Shown: positions 4,837 through 59,193 of the stretch, in pieces | Position numbering within the stretch: the first letter of the stretch is position 1 | Layout: each line of letters begins with the position of its first letter | DNA from: Escherichia phage vB_EcoM_WL-3 | DNA length: 64,000 nt | Strand: one strand, 5' to 3' | Sequence record: MT968995.1 | The notes under the pieces: generated by a model | What the model was told of the DNA's origin: nothing | The model's input: the letters and a program-made list of their open reading frames with translations, nothing else | The model's database searches: none | Made by a program: the position numbers and the translations under genes

Positions 4837-5070
4837 TTATTTTTTACGAAAAATTGATTTATTTTCTGCTGCCCATTTTTCAATAACTGCAGCAGGACCA
4901 GTAACAACAATTTTATCACCGTAATCTTCTGCGGCGAGTTGACCGAAATTATCTAATGCATCACGAAGAACTCCATGAGGCATTTCACCCATTTTATCTT
5001 TCTTGCCAGTGTAAATAAACTCAACTTTTACATCAGCAGTTTCAGCAATAAATTCTTGGTAAGTTTTCAT
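4837..5070 (-). CDS. ipI: internal protein I-like capsid cargo protein with targeting signal
   Basis: Track ORF starts MEIKM; second ATG gives MKTYQEFIAE, the T4 IPI targeting signal as recalled; GGAAA 7 nt upstream. Confidence 0.5.
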   Translation of the reverse strand: MKTYQEFIAETADVKVEFIYTGKKDKMGEMPHGVLRDALDNFGQLAAEDYGDKIVVTGPAAVIEKWAAENKSIFRKK

Positions 5071-5104
5071 TTTGATTTCCATTTGGTTTTGTTTTGATAG
5101 GGTA

Positions 5105-5134
5105 ATAGTATCACAACTAAAACCCTATGTAAAC
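5105..5134 (-). promoter_or_regulatory. T4 early-type sigma70 promoter
   Basis: Minus strand cacaaagttGTTTACA, 17 nt, TGaTACTAT; AT-rich upstream; 7-bp inverted repeat atagggt/accctat spans the -10. Confidence 0.5.
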
Positions 5135-5146
5135 AACTTTGTGAAA

Positions 5147-5404
5147 TTATTTTAAATCTTCTAATCGTTTCTTCATCTTAGAACCATTTTTAGCAATTTC
5201 TCCTGCATCGGAGCATAATGCTAAAAGTGCTTTAACTTTAGTTTGGTCTCCTTTAAAAGATGAAGGATCGACCGCAGCAGCAAGTTCTTTAATACGAGAG
5301 AAAAGACGCTCAGCTTCAGCTAAAGCCATTCCAAGCTTTACTTCCATACCGTGGGAAGATTCAGTGATAGTAGTTTTTGTAGCAAACTCTTTGAAAGTTT
5401 TCAT
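5147..5404 (-). CDS. small protein with internal-protein-like targeting signal
   Basis: N-terminus MKTFKEFATK resembles the MKTY.EF motif; 85 aa. Confidence 0.45.
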   Translation of the reverse strand: MKTFKEFATKTTITESSHGMEVKLGMALAEAERLFSRIKELAAAVDPSSFKGDQTKVKALLALCSDAGEIAKNGSKMKKRLEDLK

Positions 5405-5435
5405 TTTTATTTTCCTAATTAATTTTGATGAGGTA

Positions 5436-5465
5436 ATAGTATCACTACCTCATCAGTATGTAAAC
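5436..5465 (-). promoter_or_regulatory. T4 early-type sigma70 promoter
   Basis: Minus strand cacaaagttGTTTACA, 17 nt, TGaTACTAT; 10-bp inverted repeat tgatgaggta/tacctcatca (5426-5455) brackets the -10. Confidence 0.5.
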
Positions 5466-5477
5466 AACTTTGTGAAA

Positions 5478-6162
<685 letters not shown>

Positions 6163-6163
<1 letters not shown>

Positions 6164-6888
6164 TATAGTACCTTTAGTGTATTTTTAATTTTAGAAAAAA
6201 GTTCTTCAAGAGAACCATCGTTTGTAATTACTAAATCGCCATCACGAATTGGCAATCCAGCTTCTGTAATATGTGTATCATTGGATTTTTGACCAGGACG
6301 AACTACATGAATTACTGTAGCACCCATCGCCCTAGCCGCATCCATTTCATGATCTTGACGGGTATCAGGAACGATATAATAATCATAACCTGAGTTAAAT
6401 TTATCAAGATAATCTAAAGCAAATAATTTTACCCAGTACATGCGGTCGAAGTTATTAACAATCAAATCCGTACCTAGGGCTTGCATCAGACGACGGACTG
6501 ACCATTGATCTTCAATATTATTTATAACGTCAATAATCTTGTTAAATGCTACGGAATTAACTGATTCTTGTCCTTCGTCATCAAAAACAAACACACCTTT
6601 AATTGGGCTTTTACCATTAAGATAGCAAAATGCTTGTTCCATAATCGTGATTACTTCTAATTTAGTTAGATTTAAATTAGTCTCACGATCATAGTCAATT
6701 CCTTCAAACTCTTTACGAGTTAAGCAAGGATAGTCGGTATTTGCTGCAAATACTCCCCATGCATAAGCCAATGCATCCTTAATAGGACCAGCAAGTTGGT
6801 ATTTAACTGCAGAATAATTGCTCATGATAAAATCAGCAGTAGTATCTTTTCCACTACGCTTTACACCGCTTAAAAAGATTAGTTTCAT
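6163..6888 (-). CDS. 1: gp1 deoxynucleoside monophosphate kinase
   Basis: 241 aa; P-loop GVKRSGKDT near N-terminus; synteny 57A-1-3-2-4. Confidence 0.8.
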
Positions 6889-6937
6889 ATGTTTCTCCTC
6901 AAATTTAGTTAAGATTATAACACATGAAACTGAAGCA

Positions 6938-7468
6938 TTAAACTTCCGCTATAATTTTTCCATCTTTTTCTACTTGAAAATACGTATAAGGAATCGTTGC
7001 TGTACATACTAAAGCCGGGTCTGAATCTTCTGTGTAGCTAAATTCTACTTCAGACAGGTCAGAAACCCAAGGCTTATAAAAATTTATTGACATCACGATT
7101 TCAGTTTTGCTATTATCTAAAATGTAAAGCGTAATGTATTCAGGACCTGTTTTTTGGGCAGTATTTTCACCTGTAAGATAGTTGCTAGTTCCTAGCATCC
7201 ATTCATACATTCCTATCCATGACTTAAGTTCTTCATCAACTATAAATCTCACGATGAGTGGATCGTACTCAAATGTAGCACCTGGACGTTGTGCTCGGCC
7301 CAGTCCAAACGGCCCAGTCACGGTATCAGTAACAGGTATTCTAATTCCTGGAATAGGAACTGACTGAGCATTTAAAGTAAAAGCAGATGTAGTATTACTA
7401 TGTGGTATTGATACTACAAAGTTAGTTGTATTTGCTTGGTTAAAAATTTGTTGCAGTGCTTGCGACAT
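6938..7468 (-). CDS. 3: gp3 tail completion / sheath stabiliser
   Basis: Track ORF begins at TTG; in-frame ATG (MSQALQQ) with GAGGAA upstream gives 176 aa, the T4 gp3 length. Confidence 0.75.
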   Translation of the reverse strand: MSQALQQIFNQANTTNFVVSIPHSNTTSAFTLNAQSVPIPGIRIPVTDTVTGPFGLGRAQRPGATFEYDPLIVRFIVDEELKSWIGMYEWMLGTSNYLTGENTAQKTGPEYITLYILDNSKTEIVMSINFYKPWVSDLSEVEFSYTEDSDPALVCTATIPYTYFQVEKDGKIIAEV

Positions 7469-7574
7469 ATATTCCTCATAATGCTTTATAACTGTTGGTG
7501 GTATAATGGGTCTAAGTCCCTTCCATTCAATTCCATTTAGAACAAACAACAGAAAAGAATGGAAGATAATAGAA

Positions 7575-8399
7575 TTAGATATTTGACCAGACTTTGTTTG
7601 CAGAGAAACGTTTTCCTTTTGAAACGAACTGCTGAAGTGGCATTAACACAACGTTCGCCCAGTCTTTCGGGGCGATTTCAACAAGGCTACCCATAATATT
7701 ACCAGGTATATATGCCTTAATCATTTGGTCTGCACCCCTAAATCCTTTCACTTGACTCCAATCAATTTTTAATTTCGTTTTATTAGTAATAGTAGGTGTA
7801 TTTGAATATTGCTTTAAAAGCTCTTCTAGGAATTGCTGGCGAGCTTTAGGTGGAATATAGTGCAAGTTCAATCCGTACATTAAATTATGCTTACCTAAAC
7901 CAAGGTAAATTATCAAAGGAAATTTATCCCAGTAAGGAAGAGTTTCCTTGTGTTTAGCATCATAAGCAAAAGCATATATTCGTCCCGGCTGCGGGCGAAC
8001 AACTTTATGTCCTTTTACTTGCTTAATAGTTTCAGCAAACCACTTTCTGGTTTTATTATTAATTGCTGCGCCTTCATTACGAATTTTATCGCGCAATGTT
8101 TGTCTGAATGAATTTATCATAAGCAGTTGTCTTTCTTGCTTATTGAGTTTATTCATTGGTTTTGATTCAAGCTTTTGAATCTTTTCAGCCGTTTTAATTC
8201 CTGAAGCATATTTTGACATTGCTGAAGTAAACGTAGAGTATTTGATTCCTCTTTCTTCAGCAAATTGCTTTCCGGTCATTCCTTTTGCTTTGGCCTTTTT
8301 ATATTCAAGACCTATCTGAATCCATTTCTTTTCGTTTAATGATTGCTTAACCTTTGGAACTTGGGGAGTGCTTTCATTAATTATTTGAAAAATAGCCAT
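7575..8399 (-). CDS. 2: gp2 DNA end-protector protein
   Basis: 274 aa, synteny between genes 3 and 4. Confidence 0.8.
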
Positions 8400-8851
8400 T
8401 ATGCCCCCTTAAAGCCAAGAGCTCGTAATCCATCTTCTGTTAAAATTCTAAATTTTATTCCACGCTTTTCAGCTAAAGCTTGAGCTGCTTTCCATTTGTC
8501 AGTATTAACGGAATATGTATAAATTTCATTCATAAATCTTTTCTTCGCTGCAGTTGTTAGATGTGCTGGTTTAACTGGTGGTTGTGTTTCTTTTTTAGGT
8601 TTTATTTCAATAAAAAATTCTTGTCCAGAAGAATCTTTCATCCAAATATCCATGAAGTATCTACGTTTTTTCCCTTCTGCATTACAAAAATAAGGAATTA
8701 CTGCTGTTTCACTACCCCATGCAATAATTTCTGGATTTTTATCTAACCATTCAAAAAAGAATTTTTCCCAATTTGATCTATACGTAATTTTTTTAGGGTC
8801 ACCTCTATACTTTGATATATTTTTAGGAACCCATTTTCCAGAATATGCCAT
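8399..8851 (-). CDS. 4: gp4 head completion protein
   Basis: 150 aa; start overlaps gp2 stop; divergent from gene 53. Confidence 0.8.
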
Positions 8852-8862
8852 TGGATTCTCCT

Positions 8863-8870
8863 TATAAATA
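8863..8870 (+). promoter_or_regulatory. T4 late promoter TATAAATA for gene 53
   Basis: Exact TATAAATA about 29 nt upstream of gp53 ATG. Confidence 0.6.
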
Positions 8871-8877
8871 GATAATA

Positions 8878-8885
8878 TATTTATA
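8878..8885 (-). promoter_or_regulatory. T4 late promoter TATAAATA for gene 4
   Basis: Exact TATAAATA on minus strand 27 nt upstream of gp4 ATG. Confidence 0.6.
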
Positions 8886-8898
8886 AACAGGAGGGCCC

Positions 8899-9489
8899 AT
8901 GCTCTTTACATTTTTTGATCCGATTGAATATGCGGCCAAAACGGTGAATAAAAACGCGCCGACTATTCCTATGACAGATATTTTTAGAAACTATAAAGAC
9001 TATTTTAAACGCGCTCTTGCGGGATACCGCTTACGTACTTATTATATCAAAGGTTCACCACGCCCGGAAGAATTAGCAAATACTATATATGGAAATCCAC
9101 AGTTGTATTGGGTTTTATTGATGTGTAATGATAATTATGACCCGTATTATGGATGGATTACTTCACAAGAAGCAGCTTATCAAGCATCTATACAAAAATA
9201 CAAAAATGTAGGTGGAGACCAAATAGTATATCATGTGAATGAGAACGGTGAAAAATTTTATAATTTAATATCATACGATGATAATCCATATGTTTGGTAT
9301 GATAAAGGTGATAAAGCTAGAAAATATCCTCAATATGAAGGAGCACTTGCTGCTGTTAATACGTATGAAGATGCTGTTCTTGAAAATGAAAAACTTCGTC
9401 AAATAAAAATAATAGCAAAATCAGACATTAATTCATTTATGAACGACCTTATACGTATAATGGAGAAATCTTATGGAAATGATAAGTAA
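8899..9489 (+). CDS. 53: gp53 baseplate wedge protein
   Basis: 196 aa as in T4; directly upstream of and overlapping gene 5. Confidence 0.85.
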   Translation: MLFTFFDPIEYAAKTVNKNAPTIPMTDIFRNYKDYFKRALAGYRLRTYYIKGSPRPEELANTIYGNPQLYWVLLMCNDNYDPYYGWITSQEAAYQASIQKYKNVGGDQIVYHVNENGEKFYNLISYDDNPYVWYDKGDKARKYPQYEGALAAVNTYEDAVLENEKLRQIKIIAKSDINSFMNDLIRIMEKSYGNDK

Positions 9490-11200
9490 TAACCTTAATT
9501 GGTTTGTTGGTGTTGTTGAAGATAGAATGGACCCATTAAAATTAGGTCGTGTTCGTGTTCGTGTGGTTGGTCTGCATCCACCTCAAAGAGCACAAGGCGA
9601 TGTAATGGGTATTCCAACTGAAAAATTACCATGGATGTCAGTTATTCAACCTATAACTTCTGCAGCAATGTCTGGAATTGGAGGTTCTGTTACTGGACCG
9701 GTAGAAGGAACTAGAGTTTATGGTCATTTTTTAGACAAATGGAAAACTAACGGAATTGTCCTTGGCACGTATGGTGGAATAGTTCGCGAAAAACCGAATA
9801 GACTTGAAGGATTTTCTGACCCAACTGGGCAATATCCTAGACGTTTAGGAAATGATACTAATGTATTAAACCAAGGCGGAGAAGTAGGATATGATTCGTC
9901 TTCTAACATTATCCAAGATAGTAACTTAGACACTGCAATAAATCCCGATGATAGACCACTATCAGAGATTCCAACCGATGATAATCCAAATATGTCAATG
10001 GCTGACATGCTTCGCCGTGATGAAGGATTAAGACTAAAAGTTTATTGGGATACTGAAGGATATCCGACAATTGGTATTGGTCATCTTATCATGAAGCAGC
10101 CAGTTCGTGATATGGCTCAAATTAATAAAGTTTTATCAAAACAAGTTGGTCGTGAAATTACTGGAAACCCAGGTTCTATTACGATGGAAGAGGCGACGAC
10201 TTTATTTGAACGTGATTTGGCTGATATGCAACGGGACATTAAATCACATTCTAAAGTAGGACCAGTCTGGCAAGCTGTCAACCGTTCTCGTCAAATGGCG
10301 TTAGAAAATATGGCATTTCAAATGGGTGTTGGCGGTGTAGCTAAATTTAACACAATGTTAACTGCTATGTTAGCCGGAGATTGGGAAAAAGCATATAAAG
10401 CCGGTCGTGATTCATTGTGGTATCAACAAACAAAAGGCCGTGCATCCCGTGTTACCATGATTATTCTTACGGGGAATTTGGAATCATATGGTGTTGAAGT
10501 GAAAACCCCAGCTAGGTCTCTATCAGCAATGGCTGCTACTGTAGCTAAATCTTCTGACCCGGCTGACCCTCCTATTCCAAATGACTCGAGAATTTTATTC
10601 AAAGAACCAGTTTCTTCATATAAAGGTGAATATCCTTATGTGCATACAATGGAAACTGAAAGCGGACATATTCAGGAATTTGATGATACTCCTGGGCAAG
10701 AACGATACAGATTAGTTCATCCGACTGGAACTTATGAAGAAGTATCACCGTCAGGAAGAAGAACAAGAAAAACTGTCGATAATTTGTATGATATAACCAA
10801 CGCTGATGGTAATTTTTTGGTAGCCGGTGATAAAAAGACTAACGTCGGTGGATCAGAAATTTATTACAACATGGATAATCGTCTTCACCAAATAGATGGA
10901 AGCAATACAATATTTGTACGTGGCGATGAAACTAAGACAGTTGAAGGCAATGGAACTATCCTAGTTAAAGGTAATGTTACTATTGTAGTTGAAGGTAATG
11001 CTGACATTACAGTTAAAGGAGATGCTACCACTTTAGTTGAAGGAAATCAAACTAACACAGTAAATGGAAATCTTTCTTGGAAAGTTGCTGGGACAGTTGA
11101 TTGGGACGTTGGTGGTGATTGGACAGAAAAAATGGCATCTATGAGTTCTATTTCATCTGGTCAATACACAATTGATGGATCGAGGATTGACATTGGCTAA
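9473..11200 (+). CDS. 5: gp5 baseplate hub spike with tail lysozyme domain
   Basis: 575 aa; lysozyme motif DTEGYPTIGIGHL; C-terminal VxGxxxxx beta-helix repeats. Confidence 0.95.
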   Translation: MEMISNNLNWFVGVVEDRMDPLKLGRVRVRVVGLHPPQRAQGDVMGIPTEKLPWMSVIQPITSAAMSGIGGSVTGPVEGTRVYGHFLDKWKTNGIVLGTYGGIVREKPNRLEGFSDPTGQYPRRLGNDTNVLNQGGEVGYDSSSNIIQDSNLDTAINPDDRPLSEIPTDDNPNMSMADMLRRDEGLRLKVYWDTEGYPTIGIGHLIMKQPVRDMAQINKVLSKQVGREITGNPGSITMEEATTLFERDLADMQRDIKSHSKVGPVWQAVNRSRQMALENMAFQMGVGGVAKFNTMLTAMLAGDWEKAYKAGRDSLWYQQTKGRASRVTMIILTGNLESYGVEVKTPARSLSAMAATVAKSSDPADPPIPNDSRILFKEPVSSYKGEYPYVHTMETESGHIQEFDDTPGQERYRLVHPTGTYEEVSPSGRRTRKTVDNLYDITNADGNFLVAGDKKTNVGGSEIYYNMDNRLHQIDGSNTIFVRGDETKTVEGNGTILVKGNVTIVVEGNADITVKGDATTLVEGNQTNTVNGNLSWKVAGTVDWDVGGDWTEKMASMSSISSGQYTIDGSRIDIG

Positions 11201-11729
11201 TATACTTCCAATGAGCGCTGATTTAGGAGAATCCATGGAAGGTTCTTCTATTGACGTCACCTTTACCGCTCAATTAGAAACAGGTGAAACGTTAGTATCT
11301 ATAAATATAACTAGTTACGAAGAAACTCCTGGGGTTTTAGTAGAAGAAAATCGCTTATACGGAACATATGAATCTGTGTTTGGATTTGGAAATGACGCGT
11401 TGAAATATCGTTTAGGCGATGAATTTAAAACTGCTGCTTCATGGGAAGAACTTCCTACTGATTCTGATACTCAGTTGTATTTATGGAAAGCTCCTCAAAA
11501 CCTCCAGAAGACATTCACTTACGAAGTAACATTAATATATGACTATCAAGAACAAAGTGAATCTGGAGGTTCTGGTAGTAATTCTAGGTCATCTTCTGAT
11601 ACTACTGAACCAACGGATCCTCCTGCTCCAATAAGAAAAACTCTTGTTAAAAATTACACAAAAACTATAGTTGGAAATTGGAGTCGTTGGGCTAATAAAT
11701 TAAGAAGCTATGTGTATGAGAGGTCATAG
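11175..11729 (+). CDS. gp5.1-like protein
   Basis: ORF between genes 5 and 5.4; track start is TTG so first ATG used; start uncertain. Confidence 0.55.
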
Positions 11730-51993: not shown

Positions 51994-52958
51994 TGTATTC
52001 TTTAGAGGAATTTAATAATCAAGCAATAAACGCAGATTTCCAACGTAATAATATGTTTAGCTGCGTTTTTGCGACAACTCCATCAACTAAAAGCTCTTCG
52101 TTGATAAGTTCAATTAGCAACTTTTCTTATAATAACTTGGGCCTAAATTCAGATTGGTTAGGATTAACTCAAGGCGATATTAATCAGGGAATTACTACGC
52201 TAATTACTGCTGGCACACAAAAACTGATAAGAAAATCAGGGGTTAGTAAATATCTTATTGGTGCCATGAGTCAACGTACAGTTCAAAGTTTATTGGGCTC
52301 ATTTACAGTTGGTACATATTTAATTGACTTCTTTAACATGGCATATAACTCATCTGGATTGATGATATATTCTGTAAAAATGCCAGAGAATAGATTATCC
52401 TATGAAACTGACTGGAACTATAATTCTCCTAATATTCGTATAACTGGGAGAGAATTAGACCCTTTGGTTATTTCATTTAGAATGGATTCAGAAGCATGTA
52501 ATTATCGTGCAATGCAAGACTGGGTTAACGCTGTTCAAGACCCAGTAACTGGACTGCGCGCTTTGCCACAAGATGTCGAGGCAGATATTCAGGTTAATCT
52601 TCATGCTCGTAATGGATTACCTCATACTGCTGTGATGTTCACCGGATGCATTCCAGTGTCAGTGAGCGCTCCTGAGTTATCATATGATGGAGATAACCAA
52701 ATAACTACATTTGATGTTACTTTTGCGTATAGAGTTATGCAGGCTGGAGCAGTTGATAGACAAGCTGCGCTTGAGTGGCTTGAATCTGCTGCTATAAATG
52801 GCATTCAAAGCGTTCTCGGAAATAGTGGAGGTGTTACTGGACTATCTAATTCGCTTTCACGACTTAGTAGATTAGGAGGAACTGCAGGAAGCATTTCAAA
52901 CATTAATACTATGACGGGAATTGTCAACTCGCAAAGTAAAATATTAGGAGCAATATAA
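51993..52958 (+). CDS. 54: gp54 baseplate tail-tube initiator
   Basis: 321 aa (T4 about 320). Confidence 0.9.
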   Translation: MYSLEEFNNQAINADFQRNNMFSCVFATTPSTKSSSLISSISNFSYNNLGLNSDWLGLTQGDINQGITTLITAGTQKLIRKSGVSKYLIGAMSQRTVQSLLGSFTVGTYLIDFFNMAYNSSGLMIYSVKMPENRLSYETDWNYNSPNIRITGRELDPLVISFRMDSEACNYRAMQDWVNAVQDPVTGLRALPQDVEADIQVNLHARNGLPHTAVMFTGCIPVSVSAPELSYDGDNQITTFDVTFAYRVMQAGAVDRQAALEWLESAAINGIQSVLGNSGGVTGLSNSLSRLSRLGGTAGSISNINTMTGIVNSQSKILGAI

Positions 52959-52959
52959 C

Positions 52960-52990
52960 AATGGGGACCGAAAGGTCCCCATGTTTTTAT
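52960..52990 (+). terminator. rho-independent terminator after gene 54
   Basis: ggggacc-gaaa-ggtcccc followed by aTGTTTTTaTTT. Confidence 0.7.
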
Positions 52991-53277
52991 TTACGGAATG
53001 AAATAAAAGCAGCAACTGAAGCAACTAAACTGTCTTCAATATAAACTTCAATTTTTACCGGAGCTTCTGATTCAAATTTACCTGTTACTACACCCTGGAA
53101 AATGCTTTCAGTCTGTTCTGGCTTTGAAAAATTTTCAGAAGGAAAAATTCCGAACTTTTTATTTGTTCCAAAAATTTTGATAAATTCATCATAAACTGCT
53201 TCATTAAAAGCGTTATCAACAGGAATAACGCCTTCAACTACAAGTTCTTGACCTAAAAAGCGTAAAGAAGATTTCAT
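52987..53277 (-). CDS. hypothetical protein downstream of alt genes
   Basis: 96-aa ORF with ATG start. Confidence 0.5.
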   Translation of the reverse strand: MKSSLRFLGQELVVEGVIPVDNAFNEAVYDEFIKIFGTNKKFGIFPSENFSKPEQTESIFQGVVTGKFESEAPVKIEVYIEDSLVASVAAFISFRK

Positions 53278-53307
53278 TTTGTGTTCCTCATGTTATGTCA
53301 GTAAGAT

Positions 53308-53338
53308 TATTATAACACAATACGAGGGACTTGTAAAC
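53308..53338 (-). promoter_or_regulatory. sigma70-like (early-type) promoter for the 96-aa ORF
   Basis: Minus strand TTTACA, about 17-18 nt, TATAAT, about 30 nt upstream of ATG at 53277. Confidence 0.4.
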
Positions 53339-55395
53339 TACATCTTGAACTTTTTAGACATTCCGTTGATGTTAACCAAAGAAGCTAAGATTTGAGAAAC
53401 TTCGTTTTCCTCTTCTTTTGATTCTTCTACAAGGAATTGATTAAACCCAGCCATTGGACGAACTTCACCAGTTTCCATCAGATGATCGCCATCATATACC
53501 GATTCTTCTAATTGTTCAGAAGGAGGAACGATTGTACCTTCGATTAAATACTTGTTATAAGCAGTTTCTTTCATCATGTACGTGCTCACTTTATTAATCT
53601 TCAGCAAAATTCCACGTGGTAAAATAACTTCAGCTTCTGACGTAAATCCTGATAAATGACCCGGAACGATAACTTTGATTCGCTCAGCTCCTTTAATTAC
53701 CATACCCACGCTAGTTTCAGCATCTTCATTCGCATAAGCAGAATGACTGCCCATATGCATCAAATCTTCTGCGTCAATTGAACCTTCTCCTTCACCAGAA
53801 AATACTGCACTGGAATCATCTAGAGCCATATAGTTTTTACCATACTCACCGAAGATATTTGGTTTAAGCGATGTGGATACGAAGTTCTTAAAATAGAACA
53901 TTTTATTTTCAATATTATGACGTAAAGTTTTAAAGGTAACTTCTTGGCCACGGTAAAGCGTAGTTCCTGGAGGAAGAACTGATCCTTTGGCAAAAGCAGA
54001 ATCCATCGTCTCGATGTGTTTAATAGCTCGTTCCATATATTCTTCACGAGTAGAATCCGGTTTACCTAAAAGGAACGAGTTCATTTCAACATATGAATCT
54101 GCGCAATAATCTTCAATTACATCAGACTCAGCCCGAGTTAATCCTTTTGGGGGTACTTCAGTACTTGCATATTCATACGCTTGAGAAGCAGACTCATTAA
54201 TCAATTTATAAATGCCATTCATGACAAATTGAATAATAGCTACCTTTTCATCTGGCGTGGCTTTAGAACCTTTAACTAAATCATTGACAATTTTCTTAAT
54301 AACATCAAAGCTATTAGAAATATTAATGTCAGCAAGATCGCTTAAAATTTTATCAGTTTTATAATCAAAAAATTCTTTATTCTTTAAATATTCTTGAGAA
54401 CCTTGATGTGTTATATCGCTCTGCAGTCTGATAGACGGATCACGTAAACGTGCATGGGCCAATGCAATATGATTTCGGAAGCTTTTTAGTTCATAATCAC
54501 TAGATTTAAAACGAGAAGCACTCCTCATACCACCGATAGCTCCTTTGCCGAAGTTTGAACCAATCTGAATAACGCCAGAGTTCATTGGTCCTTCTGCTTT
54601 ATATACCGGAACTTTAGATTCAAACTCTTGATATTTCTTAGCAGCGAAACTATCGCCCTGAAGTGAAGCATCGACAGTAGAGTATTGAGCTTGTGCTGCT
54701 AATCGACGACTAATTTTAGTTTTCTGAATAACAGCTTGATCCGTGCGCTTATCATTTTCTAAAGCAATAGAAGCGGCAACAGCAACAGCTTTAGGAACAG
54801 CATTACCTGTTTTAACGTCTACATAAACATCACCAACCTTTGATTCAACTTTTGTGAATAACTCAGTTGAAATAGGAGGTACACCTGGAATGTCTTCTAA
54901 ATTGGCATTTTTACGGTAAACCATAATATATGCATACTTTTTATCGTAATCCCAGATTTCCTTTAAAAGAACATATCGACCTGCTCCTTTAGTACGTACT
55001 AAACGGTCAGCAATAACTTGAATTTGTCGAGCTGCGCCATTTGTTTTACTCTTTAGTACGCGGAACAGGCATGCGTCAATTTTATACTGTTTCATTGTTT
55101 GAAGAGCAGTATCAAAAACCGCATTAATAACACCAATTGGATTTCCACCCAAGTTTTTAAGTTTAACTAATGATAGTTTCTCATTGACACCTATCATTAC
55201 GATATGCATCATTTTATCGCCTGGCTTAACGTTTTTATTTGTATCACCGCCAGAGGTGTATGTGCAAAATCTAAATCCAGGAAGCACGCTTTCTTCACCG
55301 GCTTGAATAGCAAAAATTTGAGGTATTTTATGCTTAGGATTTAAGTTAACAACCGGCGCCGAAGCGCCGTCAAATAATTCTGTAATAAGTTCCAT
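53338..55395 (-). CDS. Alt-family mono-ADP-ribosyltransferase, paralog A
   Basis: 685 aa; C-terminal ART triad YRG / FVSTSL / SEAEVILPRG; N-terminus MELITELFD shared with adjacent paralog. Confidence 0.8.
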   Translation of the reverse strand: MELITELFDGASAPVVNLNPKHKIPQIFAIQAGEESVLPGFRFCTYTSGGDTNKNVKPGDKMMHIVMIGVNEKLSLVKLKNLGGNPIGVINAVFDTALQTMKQYKIDACLFRVLKSKTNGAARQIQVIADRLVRTKGAGRYVLLKEIWDYDKKYAYIMVYRKNANLEDIPGVPPISTELFTKVESKVGDVYVDVKTGNAVPKAVAVAASIALENDKRTDQAVIQKTKISRRLAAQAQYSTVDASLQGDSFAAKKYQEFESKVPVYKAEGPMNSGVIQIGSNFGKGAIGGMRSASRFKSSDYELKSFRNHIALAHARLRDPSIRLQSDITHQGSQEYLKNKEFFDYKTDKILSDLADINISNSFDVIKKIVNDLVKGSKATPDEKVAIIQFVMNGIYKLINESASQAYEYASTEVPPKGLTRAESDVIEDYCADSYVEMNSFLLGKPDSTREEYMERAIKHIETMDSAFAKGSVLPPGTTLYRGQEVTFKTLRHNIENKMFYFKNFVSTSLKPNIFGEYGKNYMALDDSSAVFSGEGEGSIDAEDLMHMGSHSAYANEDAETSVGMVIKGAERIKVIVPGHLSGFTSEAEVILPRGILLKINKVSTYMMKETAYNKYLIEGTIVPPSEQLEESVYDGDHLMETGEVRPMAGFNQFLVEESKEEENEVSQILASLVNINGMSKKFKM

Positions 55396-55398
55396 GAT

Positions 55399-57495
55399 TT
55401 ATCCTTGAACGAACTTGTAAGGCATGTTTGTAATATCTATGCAAGACGCAATAATTCCGAGAGATGATTCTGCTTTCTGTTTAACATTTGATGAAACAAA
55501 TGATGCAAAGTCAACTCTGTCTTCTATTTCAATATCACCTGTCATTGCAACTACTTCACCAGTTTCCATTAAATGGTCTCCATCATAAATTACTGATTCG
55601 GTGAGTTCTTCTGTAGTCATAACTTCAGATTGAATGAGTTTTGTATTATTAGATGTTGTTCCGTCATTATTAGAAGCATCAGTTATTTTATTAACTTTGA
55701 CCATCAATCCGCGCGGTAGAATAACTTCAGCTTCTGTTGCTATTCCGAGACTTCCTGGATATACAACATTAACTTTATGAGCTCCATCAATTGCCCATCC
55801 TATTTGAACTTTAACGTATTCAGGATTTTCTTTATACGCTCTTATTTCGTTTGGATTAATAGTTATTCCTTCTTCATTTTTATCAACTGTCAATTCATTA
55901 CGAGCTTCTGGTTCTAAAAGACCAATACCAGCATGTGTAATTCCAAAACGTCCAAAAATGATAGGAGTTAAAGAAGTAGATACAAAATTTCTGAAATAGA
56001 ACACTTTATTTTTAACTAGTGCTTCGTATATAGGAGCAGTCATACTTTGAGCACGATAAACTGTAATGCCTTCTGGTATACGGTCACCATTTTCAAAAGC
56101 TGAATCTAAGTTATTTATAGCAGATTCAATTTCTTTTTCACTCATTACATCATATCGTTCTGGATTGTAACGACCCAAAAGAAGATTATTGATGTCAGTA
56201 TATCCTGAACCACAATACTCTCTAATGCCGCGCTTTTGTGATGGAGTATATTTAGAACCATCACGGGCAATAGTAATATCAATCATTGGACCTGCACCAA
56301 TTCCAGAAAAACTATAAATCATTCGTTTGAGGAATTTAGTTTTTGCTGCGTTCCAGGAATTTTTAGTTATTTCTTCCCAGACTTCATCTGGCTGTCCTTT
56401 ACGGGTTTTATTATGTTTATCAAGCCAAGTATCTTTATATTCTTCAAAGAATTTATTAACAGCTGCTGCGTATTTCTCTAAACATTTTATTGAAGTAGTT
56501 GGTTCATTTTTAATCGCATTAAGAATTACATCTTTAATTTTTTCAGAAACTTCATTAACCTCACTTTTTGAAAAGAATTTATAGTCATAGTGAAGTTCAT
56601 CTGCGGTTCCTTCGGCAATGATTTTTGCTGCCTTAGTTTTAGAAGCTAATGAATTAATTCCAAGCTTCATTTCTTCTGCTTCGGGAATTAAAGGAGCTGT
56701 AGCAGGTTTATTGAAATTAGCTGCAGTAGATTCATACTTCTGGAATAATTCGCTTTCAAATCTAGAAGATTCTAATGATTGACTTTGCGCAATTGCTCTA
56801 CGGGAAATTTTAACTTTAACAATAACAGCTTGGTCAGAACGTTTATCATTTTCTTGTGCAATAGATGCTGCAATTGCCTCATTTTTAGTTACTTGAGCTC
56901 CAGTATCTTTATTGATATAAACATCGCCGACTTTCGATTCAACTTTAGTAAAGAGCTCGGTACTAATTTCCGGAACTCCTGGAATGTCTTCTAGTGATAC
57001 ATTTTTGCGATGTATAAGAATATATGCATACTTTTTATCGTAATCCCAGAGTTCCTTAAGAAGGACGTATCTGCCACCTGAACGACTACGAATAAGTCTA
57101 TCAGCAATAACTTGAATTTGTCGAGCTTGACCAGCAGTTTTAGACTTAAGAATACGGAGCATACAGGCATCAATTTTATACTGACGCATCGTCTGCATTG
57201 CAACAGTAAAAACTGAATTGATATAATTAATTGGGCTTGGACCGAGACCTTTTAATTTAGCAATTGAACCTTTAGCAGTTAATGTAAAAGGAACAATATG
57301 CATCATTTTATCGCCCATTTTTAAATCGCGATTAGTATCACCTCCAGATGTATAGGTACATAAACGAAAGCCTGGTTGTTCAATTGCGTCATCGACATGA
57401 ACTGAAAAAATTTGTGGTATTTTCTTCTTTGGATTTAAGTTTGTAATCGGAAGAGTAGTATCTTCGTCAAATAATTCTGTAATGAGTTCCATCAT
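55399..57495 (-). CDS. Alt-family mono-ADP-ribosyltransferase, paralog B
   Basis: 698 aa; C-terminal YRAQ / FVSTSLTP / TEAEVILPRG; N-terminal ~230 aa closely parallel paralog A. Confidence 0.8.
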   Translation of the reverse strand: MMELITELFDEDTTLPITNLNPKKKIPQIFSVHVDDAIEQPGFRLCTYTSGGDTNRDLKMGDKMMHIVPFTLTAKGSIAKLKGLGPSPINYINSVFTVAMQTMRQYKIDACMLRILKSKTAGQARQIQVIADRLIRSRSGGRYVLLKELWDYDKKYAYILIHRKNVSLEDIPGVPEISTELFTKVESKVGDVYINKDTGAQVTKNEAIAASIAQENDKRSDQAVIVKVKISRRAIAQSQSLESSRFESELFQKYESTAANFNKPATAPLIPEAEEMKLGINSLASKTKAAKIIAEGTADELHYDYKFFSKSEVNEVSEKIKDVILNAIKNEPTTSIKCLEKYAAAVNKFFEEYKDTWLDKHNKTRKGQPDEVWEEITKNSWNAAKTKFLKRMIYSFSGIGAGPMIDITIARDGSKYTPSQKRGIREYCGSGYTDINNLLLGRYNPERYDVMSEKEIESAINNLDSAFENGDRIPEGITVYRAQSMTAPIYEALVKNKVFYFRNFVSTSLTPIIFGRFGITHAGIGLLEPEARNELTVDKNEEGITINPNEIRAYKENPEYVKVQIGWAIDGAHKVNVVYPGSLGIATEAEVILPRGLMVKVNKITDASNNDGTTSNNTKLIQSEVMTTEELTESVIYDGDHLMETGEVVAMTGDIEIEDRVDFASFVSSNVKQKAESSLGIIASCIDITNMPYKFVQG

Positions 57496-57515
57496 ATCCT
57501 CTCTAGTGTTTATTC

Positions 57516-57523
57516 TATTTATA
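57516..57523 (-). promoter_or_regulatory. T4 late promoter TATAAATA for the alt tandem
   Basis: Minus-strand TATAAATA 20 nt upstream of paralog B ATG, followed by GAGAGG. Confidence 0.6.
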
Positions 57524-57530
57524 AAATTAA

Positions 57531-57544
57531 AGGCCCGAAGGCCT
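57531..57544 (-). terminator. UUCG-tetraloop hairpin between small ORF and alt promoter
   Basis: Minus strand aggcc-uucg-ggccu followed by UUUAAUUUU. Confidence 0.45.
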
Positions 57545-57733
57545 TTAATAATCTAATGGTAAGAGAGTACGGTATATTTCAAACTTTGGCCCTTTTTCAT
57601 AGGCATCAAATGTTTCTGTAAATTTATTATAAGCATATGCATCTACAAATTCGAGAACGATTTGTGATACAGAAGTAGAAACATCTCCACCTTCTTTTTG
57701 AGCCACGACAATTGTTTCTAAGTAAGCTTTCAT
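57545..57733 (-). CDS. hypothetical protein between gene 30 and alt
   Basis: 62-aa ORF; start overlaps gene 30 stop (ATGA). Confidence 0.5.
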   Translation of the reverse strand: MKAYLETIVVAQKEGGDVSTSVSQIVLEFVDAYAYNKFTETFDAYEKGPKFEIYRTLLPLDY

Positions 57734-59193
57734 AGACCAGTTACCTCATGAAAATCACCAAATACATCCTCGAATGTATTAGCTTTTGTTTTATCTTCAC
57801 GCAAACGAATCGCAATTGGAAGAAATAATTTAACGTAATCAGTGCGACCATCAGATTTTAACCAACCGTTGCATTCGCACTCTAGAATTTTTCCAATATA
57901 ATAATTTTGGTTTTCCATAATGCGAGTACGGTCAAGTTCATGTGATTTTACACCGGCTTTATCTTTTAAGCCTGAACCTGCATTTACTTTAATTTTTCCA
58001 CACTCTGATTCAAGAATAAATCCACCCGCTTTAGTAGGGTCTTTACGGTGAGGATAAATTCCTACAATTTTTAAATCAACATCAATTACTTCTTTAAATT
58101 TATAGAGATTTTTTGAACGAGCATTTTCCCACAATCCATCGGTATTTTTGAGAATAATACCTTCAAGACCCTGGTCAATATACTTTTTATAAATTACCTT
58201 AGCTTCATCTAGGTTATTTACTACCTGGTTTTCAATTAAAATTACTTTATCATATCCTGATGTCATTTGTTCTAGTTTAGAAAAACGTACATCATATTTT
58301 AAACGAAACGCCGGAAGACCGTATATTTCTACCAACGGGACATAATCCCAGACCTGAAACTTCATGCATTTGGCTTCTTTTTCGGAAATGGTTCCTTTTA
58401 AGGATTTATTGGCGATTCCATTAGAAGCAGTACGAGATTCCGCTACTTCGGCGAATTCTTTAGCTTTACTAATTTCAGGATAAGCATCAAAAAGAAAATC
58501 TAGGCCTTCTGGTTCCTTTTTAACTTGCTCATGGTATACCAATTCACCATCAATTAACACACCTTCTGGATGAATCTGGCGGGCTTCAGCAGTCATTTTG
58601 ATTAACTCTTCCTTAAGAAGATCTAATCCTAGATATTCATTACCAGCTCGTGATAAAAGACGAACATCATCTAATTCATCACCTCGGACTTCAGCAAAAC
58701 ACCGAGCTCCATCTGCTTTTAACTGCGCAAAAGCTGGAAACTTGATATTCTTACTAATGCCTTTTTCATCATAAGAACTTGCTAGCATTTGAGGTTGTTC
58801 AGGAATTAAACCTGGCCAAACTTTGTTTGCAATAGATACTGAAGCACCGCATTCAAGGTCTCGCATCATAACTCGACGCAAAACTTCAACATCATCCTTT
58901 TTACCATCAGTGATATATCCAGTTAATTCCTCAATTGCAGCATTTCCAGTCAATTTCCGAGTAGCTAACGTGAATTCAATGAAGTCAAGCATATCGGTAA
59001 TAGTCAGCATTCCAAAACTCTGGGTAGCAATACCAGGTTTAGGCCATTTCTTGATATAATACTGTAACCCACGAGAATAAGTCAGACGATATACTCGTTT
59101 AAGCAATTCATTATTTTTATTCTTTTCAAGAATTGCTTGCTTCTGTTTAGTTGATCCAATAGATGCTATTTCATTCAGAATTTTAAGAATCAT
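57730..59193 (-). CDS. 30: ATP-dependent DNA ligase
   Basis: 487 aa as in T4; adenylation motif KADGAR. Confidence 0.95.
   Translation of the reverse strand: MILKILNEIASIGSTKQKQAILEKNKNNELLKRVYRLTYSRGLQYYIKKWPKPGIATQSFGMLTITDMLDFIEFTLATRKLTGNAAIEELTGYITDGKKDDVEVLRRVMMRDLECGASVSIANKVWPGLIPEQPQMLASSYDEKGISKNIKFPAFAQLKADGARCFAEVRGDELDDVRLLSRAGNEYLGLDLLKEELIKMTAEARQIHPEGVLIDGELVYHEQVKKEPEGLDFLFDAYPEISKAKEFAEVAESRTASNGIANKSLKGTISEKEAKCMKFQVWDYVPLVEIYGLPAFRLKYDVRFSKLEQMTSGYDKVILIENQVVNNLDEAKVIYKKYIDQGLEGIILKNTDGLWENARSKNLYKFKEVIDVDLKIVGIYPHRKDPTKAGGFILESECGKIKVNAGSGLKDKAGVKSHELDRTRIMENQNYYIGKILECECNGWLKSDGRTDYVKLFLPIAIRLREDKTKANTFEDVFGDFHEVTGL

Follow-up and report, generated by a model that had tools for sequence, protein, structure and literature searches.

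A tandem pair of Alt-like ADP-ribosyltransferase genes in Escherichia phage vB_EcoM_WL-3, the downstream member of which survives in T4 as a broken remnant

Two adjacent open reading frames (ORFs) encoding Alt-like ADP-ribosyltransferases (ARTs) were examined in a 64,000-nucleotide stretch of the genome of Escherichia phage vB_EcoM_WL-3 (sequence record MT968995.1). This whole stretch is called the window, and all coordinates are positions in it unless a comparison segment is named. The upstream ORF is termed altA and the downstream ORF altB. The order of genes on the minus strand is gene 30, alt.1, the 698-amino-acid ORF, the 685-amino-acid ORF and alt.-3, which is also the order in T4. The pair and the parts of altB are as follows.

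55399-57492 (ORF opens at 57495), minus strand: altA, 697 amino acids from the second ATG (698 from the first)
53338-55395, minus strand: altB, 685 amino acids, intact
54682-55395, minus strand: altB N-terminal module, amino acids 1-238, starting MELITE/L; AlphaFold 2 domain model with a predicted local distance difference test score (pLDDT) of 82
54151-54681, minus strand: altB variable middle, amino acids 239-415, predicted to be mostly helical
53536-54150, minus strand: altB ART domain, amino acids 416-620
53341-53502, minus strand: predicted altB C-terminal propeptide, amino acids 632-685, following LEE-631/S
53950-53952, minus strand: codon of altB catalytic residue Arg482
53869-53877, minus strand: codons of altB S507-T-S509
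53629-53637, minus strand: codons of altB E587-A-E589

The original prediction placed ORFs of 698 and 685 amino acids at 55399-57495 and 53338-55395, separated by 3 nt, and these coordinates are exact in the ORF list. The altA stop codon TAA occupies 55399-55401, ATC occupies 55396-55398, and the altB ATG occupies 55393-55395, which leaves the gap of 3 nt. The length of 685 amino acids stands, whereas that of 698 needs correction. Because the T2 and T6 annotation and the MELITE N terminus of T4 Alt agree, the start of altA is most likely the second ATG (57492), which gives 697 amino acids as annotated in T2 and T6.

The two proteins are clearly paralogous. They share 41% identity (E = 8e-165 by BLASTP), and both match the family phrog_802, ‘Alt-like RNA polymerase ADP-ribosyltransferase’, over their full lengths (altB, E = 5.6e-254, amino acids 1-685; altA, E = 2.2e-273, amino acids 1-697). 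altA has the same layout as altB: its N-terminal module is conserved and its helical middle variable, and a C3/VIP2-like ART domain comes next, ahead of a C-terminal propeptide. Conservation is spread unevenly over these parts. A closely parallel N-terminal region of ∼230 amino acids and differing middle regions had been proposed from the sequence, and pairwise alignment agrees on both counts: identity is ∼68% over amino acids 1-238 (52%-78% per 40-column block) and falls to 15%-20% over amino acids ∼239-420. It then rises to 27%-42% in the catalytic domain and to 27%-47% when the catalytic and following regions are taken together. Within the latter part of the proteins, the surroundings of the catalytic Arg and of S-T-S are nearly identical, and the block around YDGDHLMETGEV is well conserved, whereas the stretch from S-T-S to E-x-E contains large insertions and deletions and is only ∼17% identical.

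The N-terminal module, of ∼240 amino acids, has 57 invariant columns across 19 sequences, and PF26846 is listed for all homologues in the precomputed Pfam annotation. A GNAT acyl-CoA N-acyltransferase fold was considered for this module and rejected. Neither a clear fold match combined with the acetyl-CoA-binding motif, sought as Q/R-x-x-G-x-G/A, nor a family profile was found.

Both proteins exceed the gathering cut-off of PF03496 (ADPrib_exo_Tox; 23.4 bits), altB with 69.8 bits and altA with 128.3 bits, and neither has a match in NCBIfam. The catalytic motifs of altB are YRGQ at amino acids 481-484, STS at 507-509 and EAE at 587-589. Those of altA, in the 697-amino-acid numbering, are YRAQ at 479-482, STS at 505-507 and EAE at 587-589, with R480 as the catalytic arginine. 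In a family alignment of 20 sequences, the altB residues R482, S507, S509, E587 and E589 are invariant. Both copies keep intact the triad named in the original prediction; a defect in one of them would have counted against it. The R/S-T-S/E-x-E pattern is likewise kept in 12 Alt copies from T2, T6, T4, JS98 and fDHCT2, except that two copies have S-A-S.

Structural comparisons point in the same direction. In alignments of the family profile to Protein Data Bank (PDB) entries, the YR of the family aligns to the YR of C3 and CPILE-a, and its E-x-E aligns to the Q-x-E of C3 and to the E-x-E of CPILE-a. Neither altA nor altB has a close PDB relative by sequence search. altA alone gave only weak matches to CdtA and Ia, although its YR and E-x-E motifs correspond to those of CdtA, whereas the family profile reached 3.4e-8. 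The AlphaFold model of altB (mean pLDDT 74) matches solved arginine-specific and asparagine-specific toxins and has the ART fold. Because altB carries E-x-E instead of Q-x-E, which is the arginine-type signature (PMC8120803), we infer that it is arginine specific.

Alt proteins differ from these toxins in several respects. Bacterial mono-ADP-ribosyltransferases of the R-S-E clade (PF03496), of the type of C3, VIP2, iota-toxin Ia, CDTa and Vis, act as secreted toxins or form the enzymatic half of a binary toxin, whereas Alt is delivered from the phage head. Unlike C3/VIP2-type toxins, Alt proteins have the phage-specific N-terminal module of ∼240 amino acids and the helical middle. Even in the ART domain the two groups share only 13%-25% sequence identity.

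Alt of T4 is a prohead-core protein present in ∼40 copies (PMC9958956), and it is cut by the prohead protease gp21 at ITE-6 and LTE-619 (PMC5694885). Motifs for both cleavages are found at the aligned positions of altB, which has MELITE/L at the ITE-6 position and LEE-631/S opposite T4 LTE-619/S. The corresponding sites of altA are ITE-6 and LTE-632, and the family alignment shows no variation at E6 or E631. Cleavage of altB at both motifs, which we infer from this agreement, would yield a mature protein of amino acids 7-631 with a predicted mass of 69.1 kDa. Removal of the two acidic ends would shift its predicted isoelectric point from 6.3 to 8.3, and altA is much alike. The N-terminal module likely serves for incorporation into the prohead core. 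Because this module is conserved, both gp21 motifs are present and the predicted mature form is basic, it is likely that altB is packaged in the head and injected.

The ratio of nonsynonymous to synonymous divergence (dN/dS) for altB is 0.046-0.067 against T2 and T6, in the same range as for altA. By this measure altB is under strong purifying selection. Since altB is intact in hundreds of genomes, has a low dN/dS and keeps all of its catalytic residues, it is a working gene by every available sequence test.

Whether T4 has the second copy had been left as a question, and the answer is that T4 has no intact one. The T4 genes alt.-1 (NP_049810) and alt.-2 (NP_049809) are a remnant of altB, with which the shared DNA is 95.9% identical. 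Amino acids 1-56 of altB are covered by alt.-1 and amino acids 62-117 by alt.-2, and PHROGs 23015 (alt.-1) and 15247 (alt.-2) hit altB much more strongly than altA. It is thus the same gene, but the T4 version has been broken twice. One A has been lost from a run of five at window position 55236, and this 1-bp deletion causes a frameshift. In addition, a deletion of 1,699 bp has removed the equivalent of 53358-55056, which is bordered on both sides by microhomologies in the form of CTAAA(G/A) repeats. The last ∼20 nt of altB are retained beyond the deletion, and the whole remnant spans 5066-5451 of the T4 comparison segment. The T4 record describes alt.-1 and alt.-2 as ‘an old duplication of the first part of gene alt’. 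The alignment instead identifies them as the deletion remnant of a full-length paralog, and on this evidence the note in the T4 record is misleading. Of 501 records matched by a query placed across the T4 deletion junction, 91 have the T4-type remnant.

The intact arrangement is far more common. By megablast, the locus (52900-57800) was matched in 538 phage records, 356 of them with at least 80% query coverage, with a best identity of 97.9%. Nearly all of these records are Tequatrovirus phages of Escherichia, Shigella or Yersinia, and the window is Tequatrovirus of the T2/T6 type. In a tblastn search, altB was found at an identity of at least 95% in 396 GenBank phage records, essentially always at full length. 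Within Tequatrovirus, most phages have the tandem arrangement. In T2 and T6, altA likewise precedes altB at a spacing of 3 nt, and their second copies (BBC14817 and YP_010067344, respectively) are 97% identical to altB, without any difference of substance.

Counterparts also exist in more distant phages. Dhakavirus JS98 was deposited with genes named ‘alta’ and ‘altb’ (altb, ABX11128), which, unlike the pair in the window, have no gap between them. Phage fDHCT2 has three tandem copies, alt_1 to alt_3, each 3 nt apart (5001-11261 of its comparison segment). altB shares 51% identity with JS98 altb and with the third fDHCT2 copy; both of these also have its KFKM C terminus and occupy the same position, and the third fDHCT2 copy belongs to the altB lineage. 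The first fDHCT2 copy is 67% identical to altA of the window and 70% identical to JS98 alta, so it is a mosaic itself. Because the altB lineage can be recognized in both JS98 and fDHCT2 by its ∼51% identity and its KFKM terminus, the duplication that gave rise to altA and altB predates the split of these phage lineages.

The upstream gene has a different history. altA occupies the same slot as T4 alt (gene 30, alt.1, alt and so on to alt.-3 and gene 54), behind the same late promoter sequence, and the products share their architecture, the R/S-T-S/E-x-E motifs and the protease-site motifs. altB is only 42% identical to T4 Alt, and its lineage ends in KFKM rather than KFVQG. Identity of altA is 98%-99% to the Alt proteins of T2 and T6 but 70% overall to that of T4 (NP_049811; gene at 5455-7503 of the T4 comparison segment), and the differences from T4 are concentrated in the center. 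Amino acids 1-240 are 99.6% identical, with a synonymous divergence (dS) of 0.15, and the C terminus is 93% identical, with a dS of 0.16. In contrast, identity is 34% for amino acids 241-420 (dS 1.5) and 64% for amino acids 421-620 (dS 1.15). Because dS is 1.1-1.5 in the center and ∼0.15 in the flanks, the center of altA is an ancient allelic alternative, whereas its flanks were shared more recently. Such a sharp mosaic suggests that a central cassette has been exchanged through recombination. Both alleles are common in Tequatrovirus: altA is found at an identity of at least 95% in 292 records and 211 records fall in the 60%-80% band, which includes T4 Alt.

The signals that bear on expression of the pair are the following.

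57529-57546, minus strand: hairpin AAAGGCC-TTCG-GGCCTTT with a T-rich tail, read directly from the sequence
57516-57523, minus strand: late promoter motif TATAAATA, an exact match, ∼20 nt upstream of the altA start
56112-56119, minus strand: second exact TATAAATA, inside altA at codons A-I-N-N, 717 nt upstream of altB
55402-55406, minus strand: Shine-Dalgarno-like AAGGA for altB, in the last altA codons and 6 nt before the altB ATG

The motif TATAAATA occurs 22 times in the window, where 9.8 occurrences are expected. The copy before altA recurs, unchanged in sequence and position, in T2, T6 and T4. According to the original prediction, only the upstream gene has a late promoter. For a promoter at the canonical site this is correct, whereas the motif as such recurs at 56112-56119. 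T2 and T6, which have the same allele, share this second copy, and T4 alt lacks it. The internal copy could act as a late promoter within altA, or it could result by chance from the conserved A-I-N-N codons.

A scan for terminators on the minus strand between and within altA and altB found nothing convincing, the sole site being a weak 5-bp hairpin in altB at 54004-54016. Since there is one conserved late promoter and no convincing terminator between the genes, cotranscription of altA and altB from that promoter, as originally proposed, is the simplest reading. The hairpin at 57529-57546, which the simple scan did not list, extends into the alt.1 stop codon (57545-57547), taking in its final two bases. 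The late promoter follows directly after this hairpin, which probably ends upstream early transcripts ahead of the alt unit.

The neighbors of the pair complete the locus.

57730-59193, minus strand: gene 30, DNA ligase, upstream of alt.1
57545-57733, minus strand: alt.1, 62 amino acids, Pfam Phage_blade, between gene 30 and the alt unit
53309-53337, minus strand: early-type sigma-70 promoter for alt.-3 (TTTACA, 17 nt, TATAAT, upstream TG; 11 of 12 matches)
52987-53277, minus strand: alt.-3, 96 amino acids, DUF5498 (PF17602, E = 4e-63), named after the T4 annotation
52961-52982, both strands: two-way terminator hairpin with a 9-bp stem (6 G-C pairs) at the boundary of alt.-3 and gene 54

The alt.1 product matches PF24647, ‘Phage blade protein’ (E = 1e-29). 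In some GenBank records it goes by the name ‘siderophore-interacting protein’, apparently an annotation error passed from one record to another. The downstream neighbor alt.-3 lies outside the ART pair. It follows the late alt genes and has its own early-type promoter, a strong one located directly 3′ of the altB stop; it ends here in TAA just before the strong two-way terminator at 52961-52982, which closes the leftward unit. Mutations in T4 that extend the C terminus of Alt.-3 allow escape from the CmdTAC defense system (PMC11618068). The baseplate genes 54, 48 and 29 are encoded on the strand opposite to the alt unit.

The existence of the pair is not new. Duplications of alt were mentioned by Nolan et al. 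2006 (PMC1524935) and by Jin et al. 2014 (PMC4177764), and the tandem pair is already known as a gene arrangement that is annotated in T2, T6, JS98 and hundreds of other records. Any novelty implied for the arrangement itself was therefore overstated. In the literature searched, which mostly did not extend to subscription journals, there was no functional study of a second Alt copy, an absence that is no proof, and no virion proteomics or T2-specific Alt paper.

Taken together, the data make it likely that altB encodes a second late-made, arginine-specific ART that is probably packaged in the head and injected, and that probably has a different set of targets. altA (the T2/T6-type allele) and altB (the older paralog lost by T4) would then be two functional members of the Alt family. 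Both would be made from one late message starting at TATAAATA (57516-57523), and translation of altB would begin at a separate ribosome-binding site. The altB product would be built into the prohead core, trimmed by gp21 to ∼69 kDa (amino acids 7-631) and retained in the head. It would enter the next host with the DNA and mono-ADP-ribosylate arginines of host proteins using nicotinamide adenine dinucleotide (NAD+). In C3 and iota-type toxins, the stretch from S-T-S to E-x-E forms the substrate-recognition loops. Because this region and the helical middle both diverge from altA, the target set of altB is probably different. Copackaging of the two proteins and a separate host target for each, as originally suggested, are plausible in view of the conserved N-terminal module, the gp21 motifs and the divergent substrate-loop region.

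Several points weigh against this interpretation. The literature searched reported neither expression nor proteomics nor enzyme activity for altB, and a sequence search of the PDB with altB alone gave no match at E ≤ 0.01. The internal TATAAATA of altA could give altB a transcript of its own. Because T4 and the 91 records with the remnant do well without an intact altB, the gene is dispensable, at least on laboratory hosts. The role of the middle region in target choice is a guess. Finally, the targets of altA and altB could overlap rather than be distinct, which is quite possible because T4 Alt alone is already promiscuous. At least 27 host proteins are targets of T4 Alt, including RNA polymerase alpha, EF-Tu and MazF, and ADP-ribosylation of RNA polymerase alpha at Arg265 is known only for this Alt (PMC8120803).

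The loss in T4 raises the question of whether altB is simply a redundant or decaying duplicate that has no function of its own and is on its way to becoming a T4-like pseudogene. T4 and 91 of 501 records carry only the frameshifted and deleted remnant, and Alt itself is nonessential in T4 (PMC9026906). We nevertheless reject this explanation on the basis of dN/dS and distribution and regard it as highly improbable: altB is full length in 396 records with a dN/dS of 0.05-0.07, as low as that of altA, and it has kept all catalytic residues and both protease-site motifs. The counterparts in JS98 and fDHCT2, at 51% identity and with the KFKM terminus, indicate an old split from altA after which both lineages were maintained. 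If altB is active, it might still remain unpackaged and act late in the producing cell in the manner of Mod, or be a component of the prohead core that is fully degraded. Packaging is established only for T4 Alt, the internal TATAAATA could allow separate expression of altB, and the N-terminal modules are only ∼68% identical. However, that module is the best conserved part of the two proteins, both T4 Alt processing motifs lie at the aligned positions of altB, the predicted mature protein is basic like other internal head proteins, and altB belongs to one late unit with a gene whose product is known to be packaged. An unpackaged enzyme is thus unlikely.

The choice of target is less clear. altA and altB might share RNA polymerase alpha Arg265 as their principal target, so that the duplication provides dosage, or breadth of host range against variants of that target, rather than a second target. 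Both keep the arginine-type E-x-E and near-identical surroundings of Arg and S-T-S, in enzymes whose T4 relative is already promiscuous. This explanation is possible but somewhat doubtful given the large insertions and deletions and ∼17% identity between S-T-S and E-x-E, and the 15%-20% identity of the middle. The same regions differ between the T4-type and T2/T6-type altA alleles, with a dS of 1.1-1.5 against 0.15 in the flanks, and such divergence looks like that of functional alternatives maintained over a long time. A more speculative version of the proposal, which we hold only tentatively and consider rather unlikely as it stands, makes altB a second injected effector that serves chiefly to neutralize a host factor, such as a component of a defense or toxin-antitoxin system, rather than to modify RNA polymerase. 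The inactivation of MazF by T4 Alt provides a model for such an activity. The Alt locus would then be an array of cassettes with one to three slots, in which a constant head-delivery module (the N-terminal domain and the two propeptides) carries exchangeable centers for target recognition and ADP-ribosylation. T4 would have lost one of these slots, which would explain why this arm of host takeover was never studied.

The favored reading, that altB is a second injected ART, does not define a new kind of system, since the Alt-like annotation is public and duplications of alt have been in print since 2006. The useful outcomes are threefold: T4 carries a degraded version of altB, the boundaries and catalytic residues of altB are given, and altB is a gene of the majority of T-even phages, T2 and T6 included. 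With the genes, the expected mature boundaries and the catalytic residues now defined, the function of altB is a tractable problem. Nearly all knowledge of host-protein ADP-ribosylation by phages comes from T4, and yet at the alt locus T4 represents a degenerate minority, with 91 remnant records against ∼396 that have an intact second Alt. For this reason T2, T6 and most therapeutic and environmental isolates of Tequatrovirus probably deliver an additional enzyme into the host that the textbook model leaves out.

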